A stretch of 5,487 nt of DNA from a virus (Duplodnaviria; Heunggongvirae; Uroviricota; Caudoviricetes), in IMG/VR virus record IMGVR_UViG_2671180921_000003, positions 1 to 5,487 of that record; one strand, given 5' to 3'. Below the pieces are notes generated by a model, which worked only from the letters and a program-made list of their open reading frames with translations, was not told the origin of the DNA and made no database searches. This document shows, piece by piece, positions 1-5,487 of this stretch (the stretch's first letter is position 1; every line of letters begins with the position of its first letter). A program made the position numbers and the translations under genes.

Positions 1-123
1 AGCATTGAGAGCGGCTTCAACGCTGAGCTTGTTCATCAGCCGATCAAACTTACTGAGGTCTTCAGGGGTTTTGAGGTTTTTGGCCAGTTCGTTAGCCAGA
101 GCCTGTAACTGTTTCTCGTCCAT
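1..123 (-). CDS. N-terminal 41 codons of an IS256-family (Mutator-type) transposase; gene continues past the left edge of the window
   Basis: Reverse complement of 1-123 translates from ATG (plus coords 123-121) as MDEKQLQALANELAKNLKTPEDLSKFDRLMNKLSVEAALNA, matching the helical N-terminus recalled for Mutator/IS256-type transposases just before their E-x-T-x-HLG motif. GAAGG Shine-Dalgarno lies 7 nt upstream on the minus strand. Only a fragment is visible, so family assignment is from memory. Confidence 0.5.
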   Translation of the reverse strand, partial: MDEKQLQALANELAKNLKTPEDLSKFDRLMNKLSVEAALNA

Positions 124-220
124 ACATTAACCTTCATTTGATTCTGCATTGAGCATATCAAAATCGGGCAATTACACAAATCTATGTACAGGCTCGGCAT
201 CCTCAATGCACCCGCACTTA

Positions 221-247
221 ACCCGCTTCGGCGGGTTTTGTTTTTTC
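221..247 (+). terminator. Rho-independent terminator (ACCCGC-UUCG-GCGGGU stem-loop plus T tract)
   Basis: Seen directly: 6-bp GC-rich stem 221-226/231-236 with a UUCG tetraloop, followed by TTTTGTTTTTT (236-247). The T tract follows the hairpin only on the + strand. Confidence 0.65.
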
Positions 248-318
248 CTGGCATTTTGGTTTACAATTCGCACGCCAGCCTGAACAACTGGCACCTGCTG
301 CGCCAGCAGAGACAACCG

Positions 319-597
319 ATGGCGCACGATACCAAATTACACAATTCTAATGATTCTGCTGTCTTTGCCAGCAGGTGCGGACGGCGTTTTCACGCATTCA
401 CATCAGACTGGTTCCAGCATCCTCCATGCACTGAAGAGCAGGCTGAATGGATAATTCAGTGTTACCGCAGGCGTGGATACGAGGTTAAGAAAGCTCTTAG
501 TCTCGACTATCGTCACTGGATAATCTCAGTCAGACTCCCTTACTCCGAATGCCCACCGCGTCCGTCCCGCACATTCCAGCAACGCATCTGGAGGTAA
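319..597 (+). CDS. Hypothetical small protein (92 aa from ATG 319); possibly the 3' remnant of a gene disrupted by the upstream IS
   Basis: Open frame ends at TAA 595-597, 1 nt before the GTG start of the DUF968 gene (operon-like packing). The ORF-track start at 184 would read through the terminator hairpin at 221-247, so ATG 319 is preferred. Shine-Dalgarno is weak and the product is not recognised. Confidence 0.3.
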   Translation: MAHDTKLHNSNDSAVFASRCGRRFHAFTSDWFQHPPCTEEQAEWIIQCYRRRGYEVKKALSLDYRHWIISVRLPYSECPPRPSRTFQQRIWR

Positions 598-598
598 C

Positions 599-1648
599 GT
601 GCGGGTATTACTTCGACCTGTTCCGGTACCGGAACTTGGGTTGGTGGTCCTTAAACCAGGCCGTGAATCCATGCAGGTATTCCATAACCCTCGAGTGCTT
701 GTGGAGCCGGAACCGAAAAGCATGCGCGGTCTGCCGTCCGGCATCGCCCCTGCCGTTCGCCAGCCGCTGGCGGAGGATAAATCATTACTGCCGTTTTTCA
801 GCAATGAGCGTGTGATTCGTGCTGCTGGCGGCGCTGGTGCACTGTCTGACTGGCTGTTGCGCCATGTTAAATCCTGCCAGTGGCCACACGGCGATTATCA
901 CCACAGTGAAACCGTCATTCACCGTTATGGCGCTGGCGCGATGGTGTTGTGCTGGCACTGCGACAACCAGTTGCGTGACCAGACCTCCGAATCACTCGGG
1001 CAACTTGCTCACCAAAATTTGTCAGCATGGATGATTGACGTCATACGCCATGCAATGAATGGCACGCAGGAGCGGGAATTATCTCTGGCTGAATTATCCT
1101 GGTGGGCGGTCTGCAATCAGGTGGCGGATGCACTCCCAGAGTCAGTATTACGTCGTTCTCTGGGGTTACGTGCGGACAAAATCCGCTCAGTGTACCGCGA
1201 AAGCGACATTGTACCGGGAGAGCAGAGCGCCACCAGCATACTGAAGCAGCGCACAAAAAATCTTGCGCCGTTGCTTCACACCCACCAGCCACAGAACCCA
1301 GCACAGGAAAAGCAGGTGGTCAGCATTGCCGTTGATCCGGAGTCTCCGGAATCTTTCATGAGGCGACCTAAACGTCGCCGTTGGGTAAATGAGAAATATA
1401 CGCGCTGGGTGAAGACACAGCCGTGTGCGTGTTGTGGTCAACCAGCCGACGATCCCCATCACCTGATTGGTCACGGTCAGGGAGGGATGGGAACAAAGGC
1501 CCACGATATTTTCACGCTACCGTTGTGCCGGGAACATCACAACGAACTTCATGCGGATCCGCTGGCGTTCGAAGAAAAGCATGGTTCTCAGGTTGATTTA
1601 ATTTTTCGTTTTCTTGATCACGCCTTTGCAACCGGCGTGCTTGGGTAA
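599..1648 (+). CDS. DUF968 family prophage protein (YdfU-like) with a C-terminal HNH-like Cys/His motif
   Basis: 349-aa ORF with GTG start and GGAGG Shine-Dalgarno 4 nt upstream. The sequence closely resembles my recollection of E. coli Qin prophage YdfU (DUF968). C-terminal motif CACCG..DDPHH..C-REHH-NELH (nt ~1424-1552) and a second Cys/His cluster at nt ~875-961. Sits directly upstream of rusA, as in many lambdoid prophages. Confidence 0.85.
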   Translation: MRVLLRPVPVPELGLVVLKPGRESMQVFHNPRVLVEPEPKSMRGLPSGIAPAVRQPLAEDKSLLPFFSNERVIRAAGGAGALSDWLLRHVKSCQWPHGDYHHSETVIHRYGAGAMVLCWHCDNQLRDQTSESLGQLAHQNLSAWMIDVIRHAMNGTQERELSLAELSWWAVCNQVADALPESVLRRSLGLRADKIRSVYRESDIVPGEQSATSILKQRTKNLAPLLHTHQPQNPAQEKQVVSIAVDPESPESFMRRPKRRRWVNEKYTRWVKTQPCACCGQPADDPHHLIGHGQGGMGTKAHDIFTLPLCREHHNELHADPLAFEEKHGSQVDLIFRFLDHAFATGVLG

Positions 1649-1660
1649 AAGAGGTTACTG

Positions 1661-2020
1661 ATGCGTATAGAGTTTGTTTTGCCTTATCCGCCGACGGTGA
1701 ATACTTACTGGCGACGTCGTGGCAGCACATATTTTGTATCAAAAGTCGGTGAGTGTTATCGCCGTGATGTGGCACTAATTGTTCGCCAGCAGCGGTTGAA
1801 ATTAAACCTGTCCGGAAGGCTGGCAATAAAAATTATTGCAGAGCCACCGGATAAGCGCCGCCGCGACCTGGACAATATCCTGAAGGCACCACTGGATGCG
1901 CTGACGCATGCCGGACTTCTCATAGACGACGAGCAGTTTGATGAAATCAATATTGTGCGCGGACTGCCTGTTCCTGGTGGTCGGCTGGGGATAAAAATCA
2001 CAGAACTGGAGTGCGCATGA
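1661..2020 (+). CDS. rusA: Crossover junction endodeoxyribonuclease RusA (Holliday junction resolvase)
   Basis: 119-aa product with RusA family hallmarks (PPxxNxYxRRRG near the N-terminus, DxRRRDLDN..K..DAL..AG, DDxQ, GGRL..ITE) and the same length as E. coli RusA. AAGAGG Shine-Dalgarno 7 nt upstream of ATG 1661. Confidence 0.9.
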   Translation: MRIEFVLPYPPTVNTYWRRRGSTYFVSKVGECYRRDVALIVRQQRLKLNLSGRLAIKIIAEPPDKRRRDLDNILKAPLDALTHAGLLIDDEQFDEINIVRGLPVPGGRLGIKITELECA

Positions 2021-2706
2021 ATAACCAGTATTTACAGTTTGTGCGTGAGCAGCTCATTATCGCTACCGCTGATTTGAGTGGGGCAACAAAAGGTCAGCTT
2101 GAAGCCTGGCAGGAGAATGCCATGTTTGATACAGGGCGTTACAGGCGTAAAAAAATCCGGTACCGCGATGAAGTGACTGGAAGAATGATAACGCGGGATA
2201 GTCCACCGATACCGGGAAAACAATCACTGGCGAAAGGCTCATCAATTGCTCTGGTAAGTCAGGTTGAGTTTTCGACATCATCATGGCGACGGGCAGTTCT
2301 GTCTCTTGAAGAACTTCATAAAGCCTGGTTGTTGTGGTGTTACAGCGGGAGTATTTATTGGGAATATCAGATCGCGATAACACAGTGGGCGTGGAATGAA
2401 TTTAATGCTCAATCCGGTACCAGAAAAATTGCAGGGAAAACGCAGGAACGCCTGAAAAAATTAATCTGGCTGGCGGCGCAGGCAGTAAAAGCAGAACTTT
2501 TTGGTGGGGAAGGTTATGAATACCAGGAGCTGGCATTACTGGCGGGAGTGACAACTAAAAACTGGTCAAAAACATTTACTCGTCACTGGGTTGCAATGAA
2601 ACACATTTTTCACCGACTGGATAGTGAGGCTTTATTGTTTGTAATGAGAACACGTTCAAAACAAAAGACGGCATTTTCAAAGCAAAGTGTTGCAAAAGTA
2701 GATTGA
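2017..2706 (+). CDS. Putative late-gene antiterminator (Q-like), 229 aa
   Basis: Called mainly on synteny: immediately downstream of rusA (ATGA start/stop overlap at 2017-2020, GGAG 6 nt upstream) and immediately upstream of a promoter-terminator pair, tRNAs and the lysis genes. I do not recognise a specific Q family from the sequence. The ORF track starts at GTG 2011; ATG 2017 is preferred. Confidence 0.6.
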   Translation: MNNQYLQFVREQLIIATADLSGATKGQLEAWQENAMFDTGRYRRKKIRYRDEVTGRMITRDSPPIPGKQSLAKGSSIALVSQVEFSTSSWRRAVLSLEELHKAWLLWCYSGSIYWEYQIAITQWAWNEFNAQSGTRKIAGKTQERLKKLIWLAAQAVKAELFGGEGYEYQELALLAGVTTKNWSKTFTRHWVAMKHIFHRLDSEALLFVMRTRSKQKTAFSKQSVAKVD

Positions 2707-2718
2707 AAGGCATATATT
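2690..2718 (+). promoter_or_regulatory. Candidate sigma70 late promoter (pR'-like): -35 TTGCAA, 17-bp spacer, -10 TATATT
   Basis: Seen directly: TTGCAA at 2690-2695 and TATATT at 2713-2718 overlapping the 3' end of the Q-like gene. A second -10-like element with TG (cTGATATT, 2729-2736) lies about 12 nt downstream, as expected for a sigma70-dependent pause element in lambdoid pR' regions. Confidence 0.4.
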
Positions 2719-2770
2719 TCATGCAAATCTGATATTTTGCCGATTTTGTACGTGATGGCAAAAGCAAACA

Positions 2771-2796
2771 AAACCCGCCCACAAGCGGGTTTTTTG
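2771..2796 (+). terminator. Rho-independent terminator (tR'-like) about 65 nt downstream of the Q-like gene
   Basis: Stem AAACCCGC (2771-2778) / GCGGGTTT (2785-2792), 6-nt loop, T tract 2790-2795. With the upstream promoter it would give a short (~70 nt) transcript, as in lambdoid pR'-tR' units. Confidence 0.7.
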
Positions 2797-2877
2797 TGCC
2801 ACTTATCTCGGATAGGCATGGTGAATGCGCTGGTGGAGGAGATAAGGGTGATTTTTAATCAGGTGATTTTTGAATGC

Positions 2878-2906
2878 TTGCAACATTGATTTCGTAACAT
2901 TATTAT
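2878..2906 (+). promoter_or_regulatory. Strong sigma70 promoter for the tRNA cluster: -35 TTGCAA, 17-bp spacer, -10 TATTAT, GC-rich discriminator
   Basis: TTGCAA 2878-2883 and TATTAT 2901-2906, followed by CCTGCGCCC; predicted start 2-3 nt before the mature tRNA 5' end at 2916. Upstream direct repeat of AGGTGATTTTT (2847-2859 and 2862-2875) provides UP-element-like A/T tracts. Confidence 0.5.
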
Positions 2907-2915
2907 CCTGCGCCC

Positions 2916-2991
2916 GGCCCTTTAGCTCAGTGGTGAGAGCGAGCGACTCATAATCGCCAGGTCGCTGGTTCAAATCCAGCAAGGGCCACCA
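2916..2991 (+). tRNA. ileZ: tRNA-Ile2-like (anticodon CAU; tools often label it tRNA-Met), ileZ/ileX-like, 76 nt with encoded CCA
   Basis: Full cloverleaf folded by hand: acceptor GGCCCTT/AAGGGCC, D-arm GCTC-AGTGGTGA-GAGC, anticodon loop CTCATAA (CAT at 2949-2951), T-arm GCTGG-TTCAAAT-CCAGC, discriminator A, CCA. Very similar to my recollection of E. coli ileX, and in the Q-downstream position where lambdoid and Stx phages carry ileZ. Confidence 0.85.
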
Positions 2992-2992
2992 A

Positions 2993-3068
2993 CCGCCACT
3001 AGCCATCAGGAAAGAGCGTCAACCCTTTAAGTTGAGTGTGCGAGGTTCGAGTCCCCGGTGGTGGTCCA
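2993..3068 (+). tRNA. Atypical tRNA-like gene (76 nt, CCA encoded); best fold gives anticodon UUU with C33; possibly degenerate
   Basis: Acceptor stem CCGCCAC/GTGGTGG (one G-U), anticodon stem TCAAC/GTTGA with loop CCTTTAA (3024-3030), T-arm CGAGG-TTCGAGT-CCCCG with one A-C mismatch, D-stem only 2 clean pairs, discriminator U. It occupies the middle slot of the ileZ-argN-argO trio known from lambdoid phages but does not fold as a standard tRNA-Arg. Confidence 0.45.
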
Positions 3069-3081
3069 TTATCAGTATTCT

Positions 3082-3158
3082 GCGTTGTTAGCTCAGCAGG
3101 ACAGAGCAATTGCCTTCTAAGCAATCGGTCACTGGTTCGACTCCAGTACAACGCGCCA
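3082..3158 (+). tRNA. tRNA-Arg (anticodon UCU, reads AGA), 77 nt with encoded CCA
   Basis: Acceptor GCGTTGT/ACAACGC, D-arm GCTC..GAGC, anticodon stem ATTGC/GCAAT with loop CTTCTAA (TCT at 3116-3118), T-arm ACTGG-TTCGACT-CCAGT, discriminator G, CCA. Corresponds to the argN/argO-type rare-codon tRNA of lambdoid phages; which of the two names applies is not resolved. Confidence 0.85.
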
Positions 3159-3171
3159 CACTTATTTTCCC

Positions 3172-3195
3172 GGCTCGCTTTTGCGGGCCTTTTTT
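3172..3195 (+). terminator. Rho-independent terminator after the tRNA cluster
   Basis: Stem GGCTCGC (3172-3178) / GCGGGCC (3183-3189) with one G-U pair, UUUU loop, then TTTTTT 3190-3195. Confidence 0.65.
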
Positions 3196-3328
3196 GTATC
3201 TGCGCCACGCCCGGCGCATATCAACCACAGAGCCTTTCAGGGGGGAGCCATAGGGAACGGTCGGTGTGACTGTCTCTGTGGGCTGATCATTCCTGAGTGC
3301 TGGCTCACCCACCCAAAGGAACGTCACG

Positions 3329-3760
3329 ATGTTTGGAATCTTCAAAAAGAAAACCCGCAGAGCGGCAGCGGAAATTAAAAAGTTTGAGAAACGCGATCTG
3401 GCACAGGCGGTGATTAACGCTGCATACCTGGTGGCCTATGCAGATGGTGAATGCGAGGCATCTGAGAAAGCGAAGATCGAACAGGTCTTACGTAATCAGC
3501 CTGCGTTGTCTGCGTTTACCTCGGAAATTAATGCGATTAGCGCAACTATTATCGGTCAGCTGGATACCAATTTTAAAATTGGTCGTCGTGCCGCGTTACG
3601 CGAGATTGAGGATGTGAAACACGATGCGCGTGAAGCGGAAGATGTGCTGGATGTGGCGGTGGCCATTGCGGAGGCAGACGGCGAAATTGAGCCGGAAGAG
3701 CGCAAGGTGCTGGAAGAGATTGCCGGTGTTCTGGGTCTTCGTCTGGAGAATCACCTGTGA
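3329..3760 (+). CDS. TerB-like (tellurite-resistance TerB family) protein, 143 aa
   Basis: ATG 3329 with AAAGGA Shine-Dalgarno 8 nt upstream. Acidic helical protein with two repeated Y/A-x-ADGE..E-x-E-K..L modules (AYADGECEASEKAKIEQVL and AIAEADGEIEPEERKVLEEIA), which I associate with the TerB fold. Family call is from memory, not a search. Confidence 0.7.
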   Translation: MFGIFKKKTRRAAAEIKKFEKRDLAQAVINAAYLVAYADGECEASEKAKIEQVLRNQPALSAFTSEINAISATIIGQLDTNFKIGRRAALREIEDVKHDAREAEDVLDVAVAIAEADGEIEPEERKVLEEIAGVLGLRLENHL

Positions 3761-3924
3761 CGGTAAAACTGCGCCTGGCTGTGGCTGCACTCCTGCTGTT
3801 TCTGGTGGTGATGGTGGATTTCACCAGCAGAATCATGTCGGTGCTGGCGGATGGGGTGCTGGTCTGCGGCATTGTGGTATTGCTGTGGCCGGTGATAAAA
3901 AGAAACAGCCTGTATAATGCTTGA
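3757..3924 (+). CDS. Small hydrophobic membrane peptide (55 aa, two predicted transmembrane helices), translationally coupled to the TerB-like gene
   Basis: GTG start at 3757 overlaps the TerB stop (GTGA); GGAG at 3745-3748 lies 8 nt upstream. Product VTVKLRLAVAALLLFLVVMVDFTSRIMSVLADGVLVCGIVVLLWPVIKRNSLYNA. Absent from the ORF track because it is under 60 codons. Internal ATGs at 3811 and 3835 are alternative starts. Confidence 0.45.
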   Translation: MTVKLRLAVAALLLFLVVMVDFTSRIMSVLADGVLVCGIVVLLWPVIKRNSLYNA

Positions 3925-4139
3925 TTTTTTTGTTTGCTGTTTATTAAAAACACTTCTGCATGGTGAATCCCCCTGTGCGGAGGGGCGACTGGTGTAGGTA
4001 GCATTTATTATGTTGTAGGCAAGCCGACGCGGGTTCAGTGACACCGGCTGAATTCACCGGGAGGCACCCGGCACCATGCTTTGCCACAAAAGTGTTATTT
4101 CTGTTTTTCTCAAACTATCATCGTTATTCCTTTATTTCC

Positions 4140-4166
4140 GGCTGCGCATGGCGCGGCCTTTTTTTT
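4140..4166 (+). terminator. Strong rho-independent terminator (8-bp GC stem plus 8 T)
   Basis: Stem GGCTGCGC (4140-4147) / GCGCGGCC (4151-4158) with one G-U pair, followed by TTTTTTTT 4159-4166. The T tract follows the hairpin on the + strand only. Confidence 0.75.
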
Positions 4167-4252
4167 ACGACCAGCCACTGGCAGATGGTCATCCTGTGAT
4201 TTGATTCCGGTTCCGGCTTTTTAACTCTGTTCCTGTACACGGGAGAAATTCG

Positions 4253-4423
4253 ATGTCGATTAAACATTACGATGTTGTCAGGGCGGCGTCGCCGTCAGAC
4301 CTTGCGGAAAAGCTGACACACAAACTGAAAGAGGCCTGGCAGCCGTTTGGTAGTCCGGTGGACATAACTCCTTATACCCTGATGCAGGCGATTGCAGCAG
4401 AAGGTGATGTGGTGGTCAAGTAA
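4253..4423 (+). CDS. Small conserved prophage protein, 56 aa (tentatively DUF1737-like)
   Basis: ATG 4253 with GGGAGA Shine-Dalgarno 6 nt upstream, stop TAA 4421-4423. Product MSIKHYDVVRAASPSDLAEKLTHKLKEAWQPFGSPVDITPYTLMQAIAAEGDVVVK. The DUF assignment is a tentative recollection. Confidence 0.55.
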   Translation: MSIKHYDVVRAASPSDLAEKLTHKLKEAWQPFGSPVDITPYTLMQAIAAEGDVVVK

Positions 4424-4599
4424 TACTGGCCACAGTTACCCAGAAACTGAATGGAGTTGCAGGTTCGGCACTCCAGGTCATAAAAGACAGTCTGACACTG
4501 AGCCTGAATGCGCTGACGCTGACGGATGTTACAAAAAGTGCAGCGTATGGCGTTGAGATAGAAAGTCTGGTGCTGGAGATGAATGCACCGGCAGCATAA
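4408..4599 (+). CDS. 63-codon open frame with protein-like composition but no ATG/GTG/TTG start (possible pseudogene, non-canonical start, or recoding); product tentatively resembles small DUF826-type prophage proteins
   Basis: This frame is open from just after TGA 4405-4407 to TAA 4597-4599 and translates to ..GQVILATVTQKLNGVAGSALQVIKDSLTLSLNALTLTDVTKSAAYGVEIESLVLEMNAPAA. It overlaps the 3' end of the upstream gene by 16 nt. A strong Shine-Dalgarno-like AAGGTGAT sits at 4401-4408, but the only in-frame candidate starts are ATA 4423 or CTG 4426. Confidence 0.3.
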   Translation, partial: CGGQVILATVTQKLNGVAGSALQVIKDSLTLSLNALTLTDVTKSAAYGVEIESLVLEMNAPAA

Positions 4600-4607
4600 T
4601 AAAAAAG

Positions 4608-4637
4608 AGCCAGCGCCCACTCTGAAGGACGCTGGCT
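4608..4637. other. Stem-loop AGCCAGCG / CGCTGGCT (8-bp stem, 14-nt loop) flanked by A tracts
   Basis: Seen directly. AAAAAAG lies upstream and AAAAGG downstream, so a U tract would follow the hairpin only on the minus-strand transcript; possible minus-strand terminator or recombination scar. Confidence 0.4.
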
Positions 4638-4752
4638 AAAAGGCCTTATATGTTTGTAGAGACTTATTTTTCACAGACAGCAATGATGTCTGTCAATATA
4701 TTATCAATATGCGGATTGTTTCAGTTACAGATGCTTTATTAAAGAAAAAAAC

Positions 4753-4787
4753 AGCCAGCACTGACTTTCGGTGGAGAGGTGCTGGCT
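4753..4787. other. Stem-loop AGCCAGCAC / GTGCTGGCT (9-bp stem, 17-nt loop) flanked by A tracts; paralog of the 4608-4637 hairpin
   Basis: Seen directly. Same AGCCAGC core and same A-tract context (AAAGAAAAAAAC upstream, CAAAAGG downstream) as the hairpin at 4608-4637. Confidence 0.4.
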
Positions 4788-4961
4788 CAAAAGGATAGAT
4801 GGACTTCACATGTTGCTTCTATATGGCGGTACATTTTCTGACAGACAGTGACGGATGTTGTCAAGATATTGTGTCATTTATAACCTGAATCAGGGGAGGC
4901 CGGAATGTTATCTGGCATTTTTAGCAGAGCCTGAATGCCATAATCACGGCTCCCGGAGTTG

Positions 4962-4992
4962 GCCGTCAGTGGGTGACACTGGCGGCTTTTTT
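4962..4992 (+). terminator. Rho-independent terminator about 50 nt upstream of the holin start
   Basis: 10-bp stem GCCGTCAGTG (4962-4971) / CACTGGCGGC (4977-4986) with one G-U pair, 5-nt loop, then TTTTTT 4987-4992 followed by further T-rich sequence. Confidence 0.75.
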
Positions 4993-5042
4993 GTTTTTCT
5001 TTACTTTCATTTTCTGTCGGCGGTGACGGAGACATACATCAG

Positions 5043-5249
5043 ATGGAAAAAATCACAACAGGTGTGTCATACACCACGTCAGCGGTGGGGACGGGATACT
5101 GGTTACTGCAGCTGCTGGACAAAGTCTCTCCATCCCAGTGGGTGGCAATAGGTGTATTGGGTAGCCTGCTGTTTGGCCTGCTGACGTATCTGACAAACCT
5201 TTATTTCAAGATTAAAGAAGATAAGCGTAAGGCTGCACGGGGAGAGTAA
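5043..5249 (+). CDS. S: Class II holin, phage 21 S (S21) family pinholin-like lysis protein, 68 aa
   Basis: Product [68 protein letters not shown] is near-collinear with my recollection of S21 / DLP12 EssD (..[45 protein letters not shown]). GGAG 11 nt upstream. Confidence 0.9.
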
Positions 5250-5253
5250 TTCA

Positions 5254-5487
5254 ATGACTCAAAACTATGAACTGATTGTGAAAGGGATCCGCAATTTTGA
5301 GAATAAAGTTACGGTAACTTTAGCGTTACGGGACAAAAAACGCTTTGACGGTGAAATTTTTGACCTGGACATCTCGCTGGACCGTGTTGAAGGTGCCGCG
5401 CTGGAGGTTTATGAGGCTGCAGCCAGAAGGAGCATCAGACAGGTCTTCCTGGATGTTGCTGCCGGGTTATGTGAAGGGGACGAGCTG
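5254..5487 (+). CDS. Hypothetical protein, 5' part only (78 codons visible; continues past the window end)
   Basis: ATG 5254 with GGGGAGAG Shine-Dalgarno 7 nt upstream, 4 nt after the holin stop; open to the end of the window. Product MTQNYELIVKGIRNFENKVTVTLALRDKKRFDGEIFDLDISLDRVEGAALEVYEAAARRSIRQVFLDVAAGLCEGDEL is soluble and has no signal-arrest-release or transmembrane N-terminus, so it is not an S21-type SAR endolysin. Confidence 0.55.
   Translation, partial: MTQNYELIVKGIRNFENKVTVTLALRDKKRFDGEIFDLDISLDRVEGAALEVYEAAARRSIRQVFLDVAAGLCEGDEL

Follow-up and report, generated by a model that had tools for sequence, protein, structure and literature searches.

The tciA and tciB genes of phage P1 are the closest described counterparts of a gene pair present in a 5,487-nucleotide (nt) stretch of DNA from a virus of the Caudoviricetes (IMG/VR record IMGVR_UViG_2671180921_000003, positions 1 to 5,487; hereafter the window). 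The pair consists of tciA (3329..3760, plus strand), which encodes a 143-amino-acid TerB-family protein, and tciB (3757..3924, plus strand), which encodes a 55-amino-acid membrane peptide of the DUF3927 family. The products of the P1 and window genes belong to the same PHROGs (632 and 1470), with TciA 41% identical and TciB 58% identical over the aligned part. Gene order, the start of tciB at or overlapping the tciA stop, and the adjoining transfer RNA (tRNA) genes are also the same in both. Judged by sequence, the pair is the already named tciA/tciB of phage P1 and not a new module. P1 differs in having tciC, a gene for a 35-amino-acid peptide with one transmembrane segment; the window contains an STnc100 small RNA (sRNA) gene in the corresponding space and no tciC equivalent. 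The location differs as well: the P1 pair belongs to the C1-controlled ban region, between the C1-operator-controlled ban promoters and ban itself, and the window pair to the Q-dependent late region of a lambdoid E. coli prophage.

A preliminary description of the window had presented the pair as uncharacterised. It is named in P1 and annotated by Pfam, PHROG and the Prokaryotic Genome Annotation Pipeline (PGAP). Because every element is already annotated in these public resources, novelty is low and, as a discovery from this window, the pair is ordinary. Literature on TciA/TciB, DUF3927, TerB in prophage defence, and TciA with Shiga toxin consists of annotation-level mentions and one CRISPR interference (CRISPRi) screen, with no functional study. 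Published papers treat the genes as possible cargo whose predicted resistances are still to be tested (PMC6799933, PMC9603915).

The bacterial terZABCDE(F) operons share with the window the Pfam TerB family, an all-helical fold, acidic ADG...E motifs and a membrane partner encoded next door. In the ter operon this partner is the polytopic TerC, whereas in the window it is a 55-amino-acid peptide, and the window contains no open reading frames (ORFs) or Pfam matches for terZ, terA, terC, terD or terE. DjlA and YebE/DUF533 each anchor a TerB-like domain to the inner membrane through a transmembrane segment of their own. TciA has weak, sub-threshold profile matches to the DjlA N-terminal region (1.4e-6) and DUF533 (4.7e-5). 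Their arrangement is the one proposed here for TciA and TciB, but there it is contained in one chain, and the window has separate polypeptides and no J domain.

A third comparison is with the cargo slot of Shiga toxin (Stx) phages, ordered Q, tRNAs, stxAB, STnc100, nanS-p and holin. The flanks are the same in the window (an ileZ/argN/argO-type tRNA trio, STnc100, a nanS-p remnant and an S21-type holin). The contents differ, with toxin genes in the Stx phages and tciAB in the window, where nanS-p is reduced to fragments.

Identity and coupling of the tciA and tciB genes

Both genes are present in the ORF list of the window as described earlier, tciA with an ATG start and tciB with a GTG start. 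The junction reads CTGGAGAATCACCTGTGACGG, in which the TGA stop of tciA (3758-3760) and the GTG start of tciB (3757-3759) form a 4-nt GTGA overlap. A GGAG ribosome-binding site for tciB (3745..3748, plus strand), read from the sequence within the L-E codons of tciA, is 8 nt 5' of the GTG. CTGGAGAA is conserved at this junction in close loci. These ORF coordinates and the junction sequence confirm the soluble/membrane pair, with its GTGA overlap and its own GGAG, that the preliminary description had proposed.

Profile searches of both products returned families above their cut-offs. TciA matches Pfam TerB (PF05099) with 59.8 bits against a gathering threshold of 24.4, over residues 26-138, which bears out the TerB-like identity suggested earlier for 3329-3760, and TciB matches Pfam DUF3927 with 61.4 bits against a cut-off of 25. 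TciA also belongs to phrog_632 ('tellurite resistance'; 5e-69, residues 1-143 of 143) and TciB to phrog_1470 (2e-29, residues 1-51 of 54), a family labelled 'TciB-like inhibition of cell division or resistance to colicin'. A phmmer comparison with the TerB structure 2JXU from Klebsiella gave an E value of 4.5e-8 at low identity, and the structural model of TciA predicts an all-alpha, TerB-like fold. The protein is mildly acidic, with an isoelectric point of 5.1 and 27 Asp and Glu residues versus 21 Lys and Arg. It contains a duplicated acidic A-D-G-x5-E motif (A38-D39-G40...E46 and A116-D117-G118...E124) that is conserved in alignments and that we take to be a TerB signature, based on the alignments made here and general knowledge of the family. 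Acidic residues D23, D39, E46, E66, E92, D95 and E124 are kept from E. coli to Vibrio and Pseudomonas phages. A zinc-finger reading of TciA was rejected, as the zf-HC2 match is below cut-off (E value 4e-4) and some homologues have I, L, A or N in place of the single Cys42.

TciB is strongly hydrophobic (grand average of hydropathicity +1.47), and has two Kyte-Doolittle hydrophobic segments separated by DFTSR. Of the two-helix membrane peptide described earlier, the hydrophobic character and the two segments stand, and the topology is provisional, having been read from the hydropathy scale alone. Lys and Arg are present at both termini, which is compatible with a predicted hairpin having both ends in the cytoplasm (N-in/C-in). 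D21 and a D32-G33 motif are conserved in nine of 11 diverse TciB sequences. The P45/K48 end of TciB is invariant.

We examined 81 close loci, with TciA 97-100% identical to that of the window, comprising IMG/VR contigs, phage JLK-2012 and the window itself. The GTGA junction is retained in 80 of these, and an intact tciB of 52-57 amino acids is present in 77; the exceptions are two truncated and one extended tciB and one frameshifted tciA. The ratio of nonsynonymous to synonymous substitution rates (dN/dS; pooled pairwise Nei-Gojobori) is 0.03 for tciA in the annotated frame, compared with 3.9 and 3.4 in the other frames, and 0.26 for the tciB core, compared with 1.33 and 2.46; non-independence of the pairs makes these ratios descriptive, but the frames contrast clearly. 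The small ORF is therefore conserved and under purifying selection, as the preliminary description had asked of it. A 143-amino-acid ORF on the minus strand (3573-4004) and other overlapping ORFs were rejected as spurious, since the substitution patterns fit the tciA and tciB frames only.

Coupling extends to distant relatives. In 12 loci from seven phage groups, with TciA as little as about 27-30% identical to that of the window, the offset of the tciB start from the last base of the tciA stop codon is -8 to +3 nt. These are lambdoid phages (Klebsiella, E. coli), P1, D6, N4-like phages (Pollock, FSL SP-076), jumbo Machinavirus, Pantoea LIET2 and Pseudomonas nickie, and their junctions take forms such as GTGA, TGATG, TAATG and TAAATG. 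The GTG start assigned to tciB is supported because distant phages mostly have an ATG at the equivalent position. Since the window holds 69 ORFs of at least 30 amino acids, an ORF the size of tciB is uninformative by itself; Pfam matches, conservation and frame-specific purifying selection raise it above chance. On this comparative evidence, tciB is confirmed as a real gene that is translationally coupled to tciA, and the two-gene soluble/membrane module as real. The two genes are co-conserved, with tciB directly 3' of tciA across distant phage groups (lambdoid, P1-like, D6-like, N4-like virulent and jumbo phages).

In the E. coli records P0124 (197 amino acids) and P0186 (170 amino acids), and in an IMG/VR locus with a 195-amino-acid tciA ORF, a frameshift at the junction joins TciA and TciB in a single reading frame; one such record is annotated 'zinc-finger family protein'. 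These fusions are otherwise almost the same as the normal pair, and sequencing error or recent mutation may account for them. Fusion (Rosetta-stone) support for a TciA-TciB link was rejected, because P0124 and P0186 are only near-identical E. coli frameshift variants and not independent evidence.

The pair is common in E. coli. Of 5,426 complete E. coli genomes, 644 contain at least 80% of window positions 3200-4250, frequently with several prophages carrying it. The DNA of the pair has 100% identical matches in several chromosomes of poultry E. coli, in which PGAP annotates 'tellurite resistance TerB family protein' and 'DUF3927 family protein', and the pair in phage JLK-2012 is annotated tciA, tciB. 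In virulent N4-like phages the pair is found among early and replication genes.

Membrane partners of phage TerB genes and a possible role for TciAB

To place the pair among other phage TerB genes, we surveyed the neighbours of TerB genes above the Pfam threshold in 20 phage loci, a small sample with perhaps five independent lineages. A membrane-protein gene adjoins the TerB gene in almost all of them. In 12 loci the neighbour is a DUF3927 peptide. In Pseudomonas phages AF, Zuri and Lana it is an unrelated 65-73-amino-acid protein with one transmembrane segment and a CxWYGYQTERE-like motif. TerC is the neighbour in Vibrio phages MS02 and BUCT194, the latter with the order TerB-TerC-TerB. A protein of the Na+/Ca2+-exchanger family (Na_Ca_ex, PF01699) is encoded directly downstream of TerB in Vibrio phage D491 and one gene away in K479. 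Only PMBT3 has no membrane gene beside TerB. Counted by lineage, about four independent associations of TerB with a membrane protein stand against one exception, which is suggestive within this small sample.

The Pseudomonas proteins (loci L008 1932-2153, L011 1943-2146 and L019 1938-2153) have an N-terminal transmembrane segment and a conserved C..WYGYQT(E/D)R..KYA..VGCMV motif; their gene replaces DUF3927 and abuts or overlaps the TerB stop. The Vibrio loci with TerB and TerC or Na_Ca_ex are L018 (378-1926), L109 (224-2226), L108 (1801-3381) and L010 (1519-3441).

According to Turkovicova 2016 (cited in PMC12054061 and PMC11003894), TerB and the membrane protein TerC form a complex. Since phage TerB genes adjoin membrane-protein genes and a TerB-TerC complex has been reported, TciB would be the membrane partner of TciA. 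TciA would be a cytoplasmic, acidic, all-helical TerB-fold protein with its duplicated ADGx5E motif, and TciB an inner-membrane peptide of roughly 55 residues with two hydrophobic segments, serving as an anchor or as a small oligomeric membrane element. Coupling of tciB translation to the end of tciA would allow both proteins to be made together. TciB may then keep TciA on the inner face of the cytoplasmic membrane, the role reported for TerC towards TerB in bacterial ter operons. There, TciAB would adjust the inner-membrane or divalent-cation state of the infected cell during lytic development, to the benefit of the phage. In the prophage, transcription from a promoter downstream of Q would, through Q-dependent read-through, cover the pair along with the late genes. 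Use in lytic growth rather than in lysogeny is suggested by three observations: virulent N4-like phages and jumbo phages have the pair, the P1 pair is downstream of the C1-controlled ban promoters, and the window pair is downstream of Q and of a promoter/terminator pair with no nearer promoter-like site on the plus strand. We hold with moderate confidence that TciAB is a membrane-tethered TerB module acting on the inner-membrane or cation state during lytic growth.

Several observations weigh against this reading. The topology of TciB was read from a hydropathy scale. In the AlphaFold2 model of the natural fusion P0124, the TciB part is one long helix with a predicted local distance difference test score (pLDDT) of 47-68 and a predicted template modelling score of 0.64, and the model says nothing on docking. 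No stable TerB-DUF3927 fusions were found among the listed homologue-search matches. The jumbo-phage variants of TciB lack both D21 and D32, and the neighbour survey is small and includes PMBT3. Phages 434 and 2B8 encode tciB without tciA, after an unrelated polytopic membrane protein, and tciB is consequently not strictly tied to TerB. Finally, tciA, tciB and tciC of P1 were non-essential in a CRISPRi screen (PMC10695390), and therefore any benefit would be conditional. The polytopic protein preceding the tciB homologue of phage 434 (locus L002, 2138-3125) is 247 amino acids long; neither it nor the Pseudomonas single-segment partners match a Pfam family.

Four other roles were weighed against a membrane-tethered module. 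The first is exclusion or immunity, in which TciAB mimics the phage inhibition and pore-forming-colicin resistance of the ter operon and protects the lysogen or the infected cell in the manner of superinfection exclusion. Imm and Sp of T4 are small membrane exclusion proteins of a virulent phage, so carriage of tciAB by virulent phages is no bar to such a role. The TerB homology of TciA is consistent with it, as is the membership of a TerB-like protein in the Shango defence system (PMC10250203). According to Whelan 1995, as cited in PMC12054061, both phage inhibition and colicin resistance were weakened or lost when terZ, terC or terD carried insertions. However, in that cited account the phenotypes map to terZ, terC and terD (and, for a reduction in phage inhibition only, terA), none of which is present in the window. 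A search of PADLOC-DB, which includes Shango, gave no model match with partner genes; TciA has a weak partial match to the candidate PDC-S48 (E value 0.004, 35 residues), TciB has no match, and the window contains no helicase or ATPase partner genes. Membership in a defence system was rejected on these grounds. The position of the pair implies that its expression would be off in the lysogen, and the tci name was assigned 'by homology' only. The phage-exclusion or defence module put forward in the preliminary description is thus without a meaningful PADLOC match, and protection limited to the lysogen leaves carriage by virulent N4-like and jumbo phages unexplained. We regard an exclusion role as unlikely.

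The second is a cation-flux device, in which oligomers of TciB form a small cation pore or carrier through the membrane Asp residues, and TciA is a metal-binding gate or sensor. The retention of D21 and D32-G33 in most TciB sequences and the conserved acidic motifs of TciA fit this idea, and elsewhere the TerB neighbour is a member of a genuine cation-transporter family (TerC or Na_Ca_ex). However, neither the jumbo-phage TciB variants nor the Pseudomonas single-segment partner have such Asp residues, TciB has no structural or sequence likeness to any channel family, and its AlphaFold2 model is of low confidence. Such a device seems distinctly unlikely.

A counter-defence role would have TciAB shield the membrane from depolarising or permeabilising abortive-infection effectors, or interfere with the host Ter system or another membrane stress system. 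Carriage by virulent and temperate phages of many families and non-essentiality in a laboratory host are consistent with this. In D6-like Salmonella phage-plasmids (loci L103-L107, 4881-5456), a Tad2-like gene (PF11195, anti-Thoeris family) is present about 700 nt downstream of tciA-tciB, but this association is a single neighbourhood, and the pair has no similarity to any known anti-defence protein. We consider counter-defence improbable.

A lysis-timing regulator of the antiholin type, also raised in the preliminary description, fits the position of the pair between Q and holin in E. coli and Klebsiella lambdoid prophages and the superficial likeness of the small two-segment TciB to class II holins, but is highly improbable, given that the only significant TciB match is DUF3927 and none is to a holin family, that the pair is far from lysis genes in P1 (ban region), D6, N4-like (early and replication genes) and jumbo phages, and that the slot in phage BP-4795 holds stx1AB and is therefore a general cargo slot.

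The late region surrounding the pair

The pair is preceded by a DUF968/HNH gene, rusA and the late antiterminator gene Q (2011..2706, plus strand; Pfam Phage_antiter_Q, 4e-87; phrog_304), and is followed at a distance by a class II (S21-type) holin gene (5043..5249, plus strand; Pfam Phage_holin_2_1, 1e-32). With the tRNA genes at 2916-3158, these coordinates place it in the Q/tRNA-to-holin slot, as first described. The comparison with the cargo position of stx genes also holds, since in BP-4795 stx1AB fills the same slot between Q/tRNAs and STnc100. Klebsiella lambdoid prophages, whose Q and holins differ from these, have the pair at the equivalent position.

A consensus scan identified a candidate late promoter pR' at the end of Q (2690..2718, plus strand; TTGCAA-17-TATATT). 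It is followed by a candidate tR' terminator (2770..2797, plus strand), a hairpin with a T-run that was read directly as AAAACCCGCCCACAAGCGGGTTTTTTGT; the terminator scan reports the same hairpin on the minus strand. A second terminator-like hairpin with a T-run is present after the tRNAs (3172..3197, plus strand; terminator scan). The promoter scan found no promoter-like site on the plus strand from 2906 to 4674, and for this reason Q-dependent late transcription is the simplest reading. We infer late expression of tciAB from position only. Within the short stretch that separates the promoter-like site after Q from the first terminator, 2723-2795 has a weak isrK-like match (22.7 bits versus 50) that is below the Rfam threshold; in a related locus (L021, 538-614) an isrK match is above threshold, beside a C4 antisense RNA match.

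The tRNA trio (2916..3158, plus strand) consists of an Ile2-type (CAT), a diverged middle Lys(TTT) and an Arg(TCT) gene called by ARAGORN, of which Rfam confirms the outer two only. Alignment shows the middle tRNA-Lys(TTT) at 2993-3068, called by ARAGORN and also by PGAP in E. coli E2, to be a divergent form of the Arg(TCG) gene found in the usual Ile/Arg/Arg trio. The anticodon loop of this gene is altered and the Rfam tRNA model did not report it at E values up to 0.1; it may be an anticodon-switched or decaying tRNA. ARAGORN does not call this gene in many related loci. The trio is located roughly 170 nt upstream of the pair in about 47 of 60 close IMG/VR loci. Adjacency of tciAB to tRNA genes is found in five unrelated phage groups (lambdoid, P1, D6, Machinavirus jumbo and nickie) with differing tRNA sets; besides the window, the positions are L004 1616-3276, L014 1028-1733, L006/L007 884-3277 and L017 1711-1789.

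Downstream, an STnc100-family sRNA gene (3929..4115, plus strand; Rfam RF02076, full-length, 116 bits versus a gathering score of 47) begins 5 nt past the tciB stop. It follows tciB also in JLK-2012 and two IMG/VR loci, and in BP-4795 it follows stx1B and is succeeded by nanS-p (yjhS) and the holin gene. STnc100 is a lambdoid backbone gene rather than a part of the tciAB module, and the cargo slot ends at it on the downstream side. Outside the window its positions include L001 4787-4959 and L100 3485-3698. The 3' terminator hairpin of the Rfam model is absent in the window, where a separate terminator-like hairpin is found at 4140-4158 (with its T8 run, 4140..4166, plus strand; terminator scan). 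A perfect TATAAT (3913-3918) is present within the last tciB codons (L-Y-N), about 10 nt 5' of the STnc100 start, and the sRNA promoter may overlap the 3' end of tciB. Most related alleles have CATAAT at this site (His for Tyr), no good -35 was seen, and the promoter scan did not flag it.

Beyond the sRNA gene, a DUF1737 ORF (4253..4423, plus strand; Pfam DUF1737) is the N-terminal remnant of a nanS-p-type gene (SASA esterase). Fragments of nanS-p extend downstream to about 4620, and PGAP annotates them as partial pseudogene(s) in the E. coli E2 locus, which is identical to the window over 3200-4250. The nanS-p-type gene is full-length in JLK-2012, 434 and BP-4795.

Phage TerB genes as a wider class

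Beyond this window, phage TerB proteins may be the cytoplasmic, metal-binding half of small devices that alter the divalent-cation or membrane state, with an interchangeable membrane half (DUF3927, the single-segment protein, TerC or a Na+/Ca2+-exchanger family protein) and TciAB as the minimal version. Temperate, virulent and jumbo phages would use such devices in lytic growth, as a widespread host-takeover function. We advance this generalisation tentatively and think it rather doubtful as a whole.

The tciAB pair occupies the late-operon slot of the Shiga toxin genes and is common in E. coli, with relatives in P1-like phage-plasmids, N4-like virulent phages and jumbo phages. If the membrane-partner pattern holds, it could point to a common means by which phages modify the inner membrane or the cation balance of the host.

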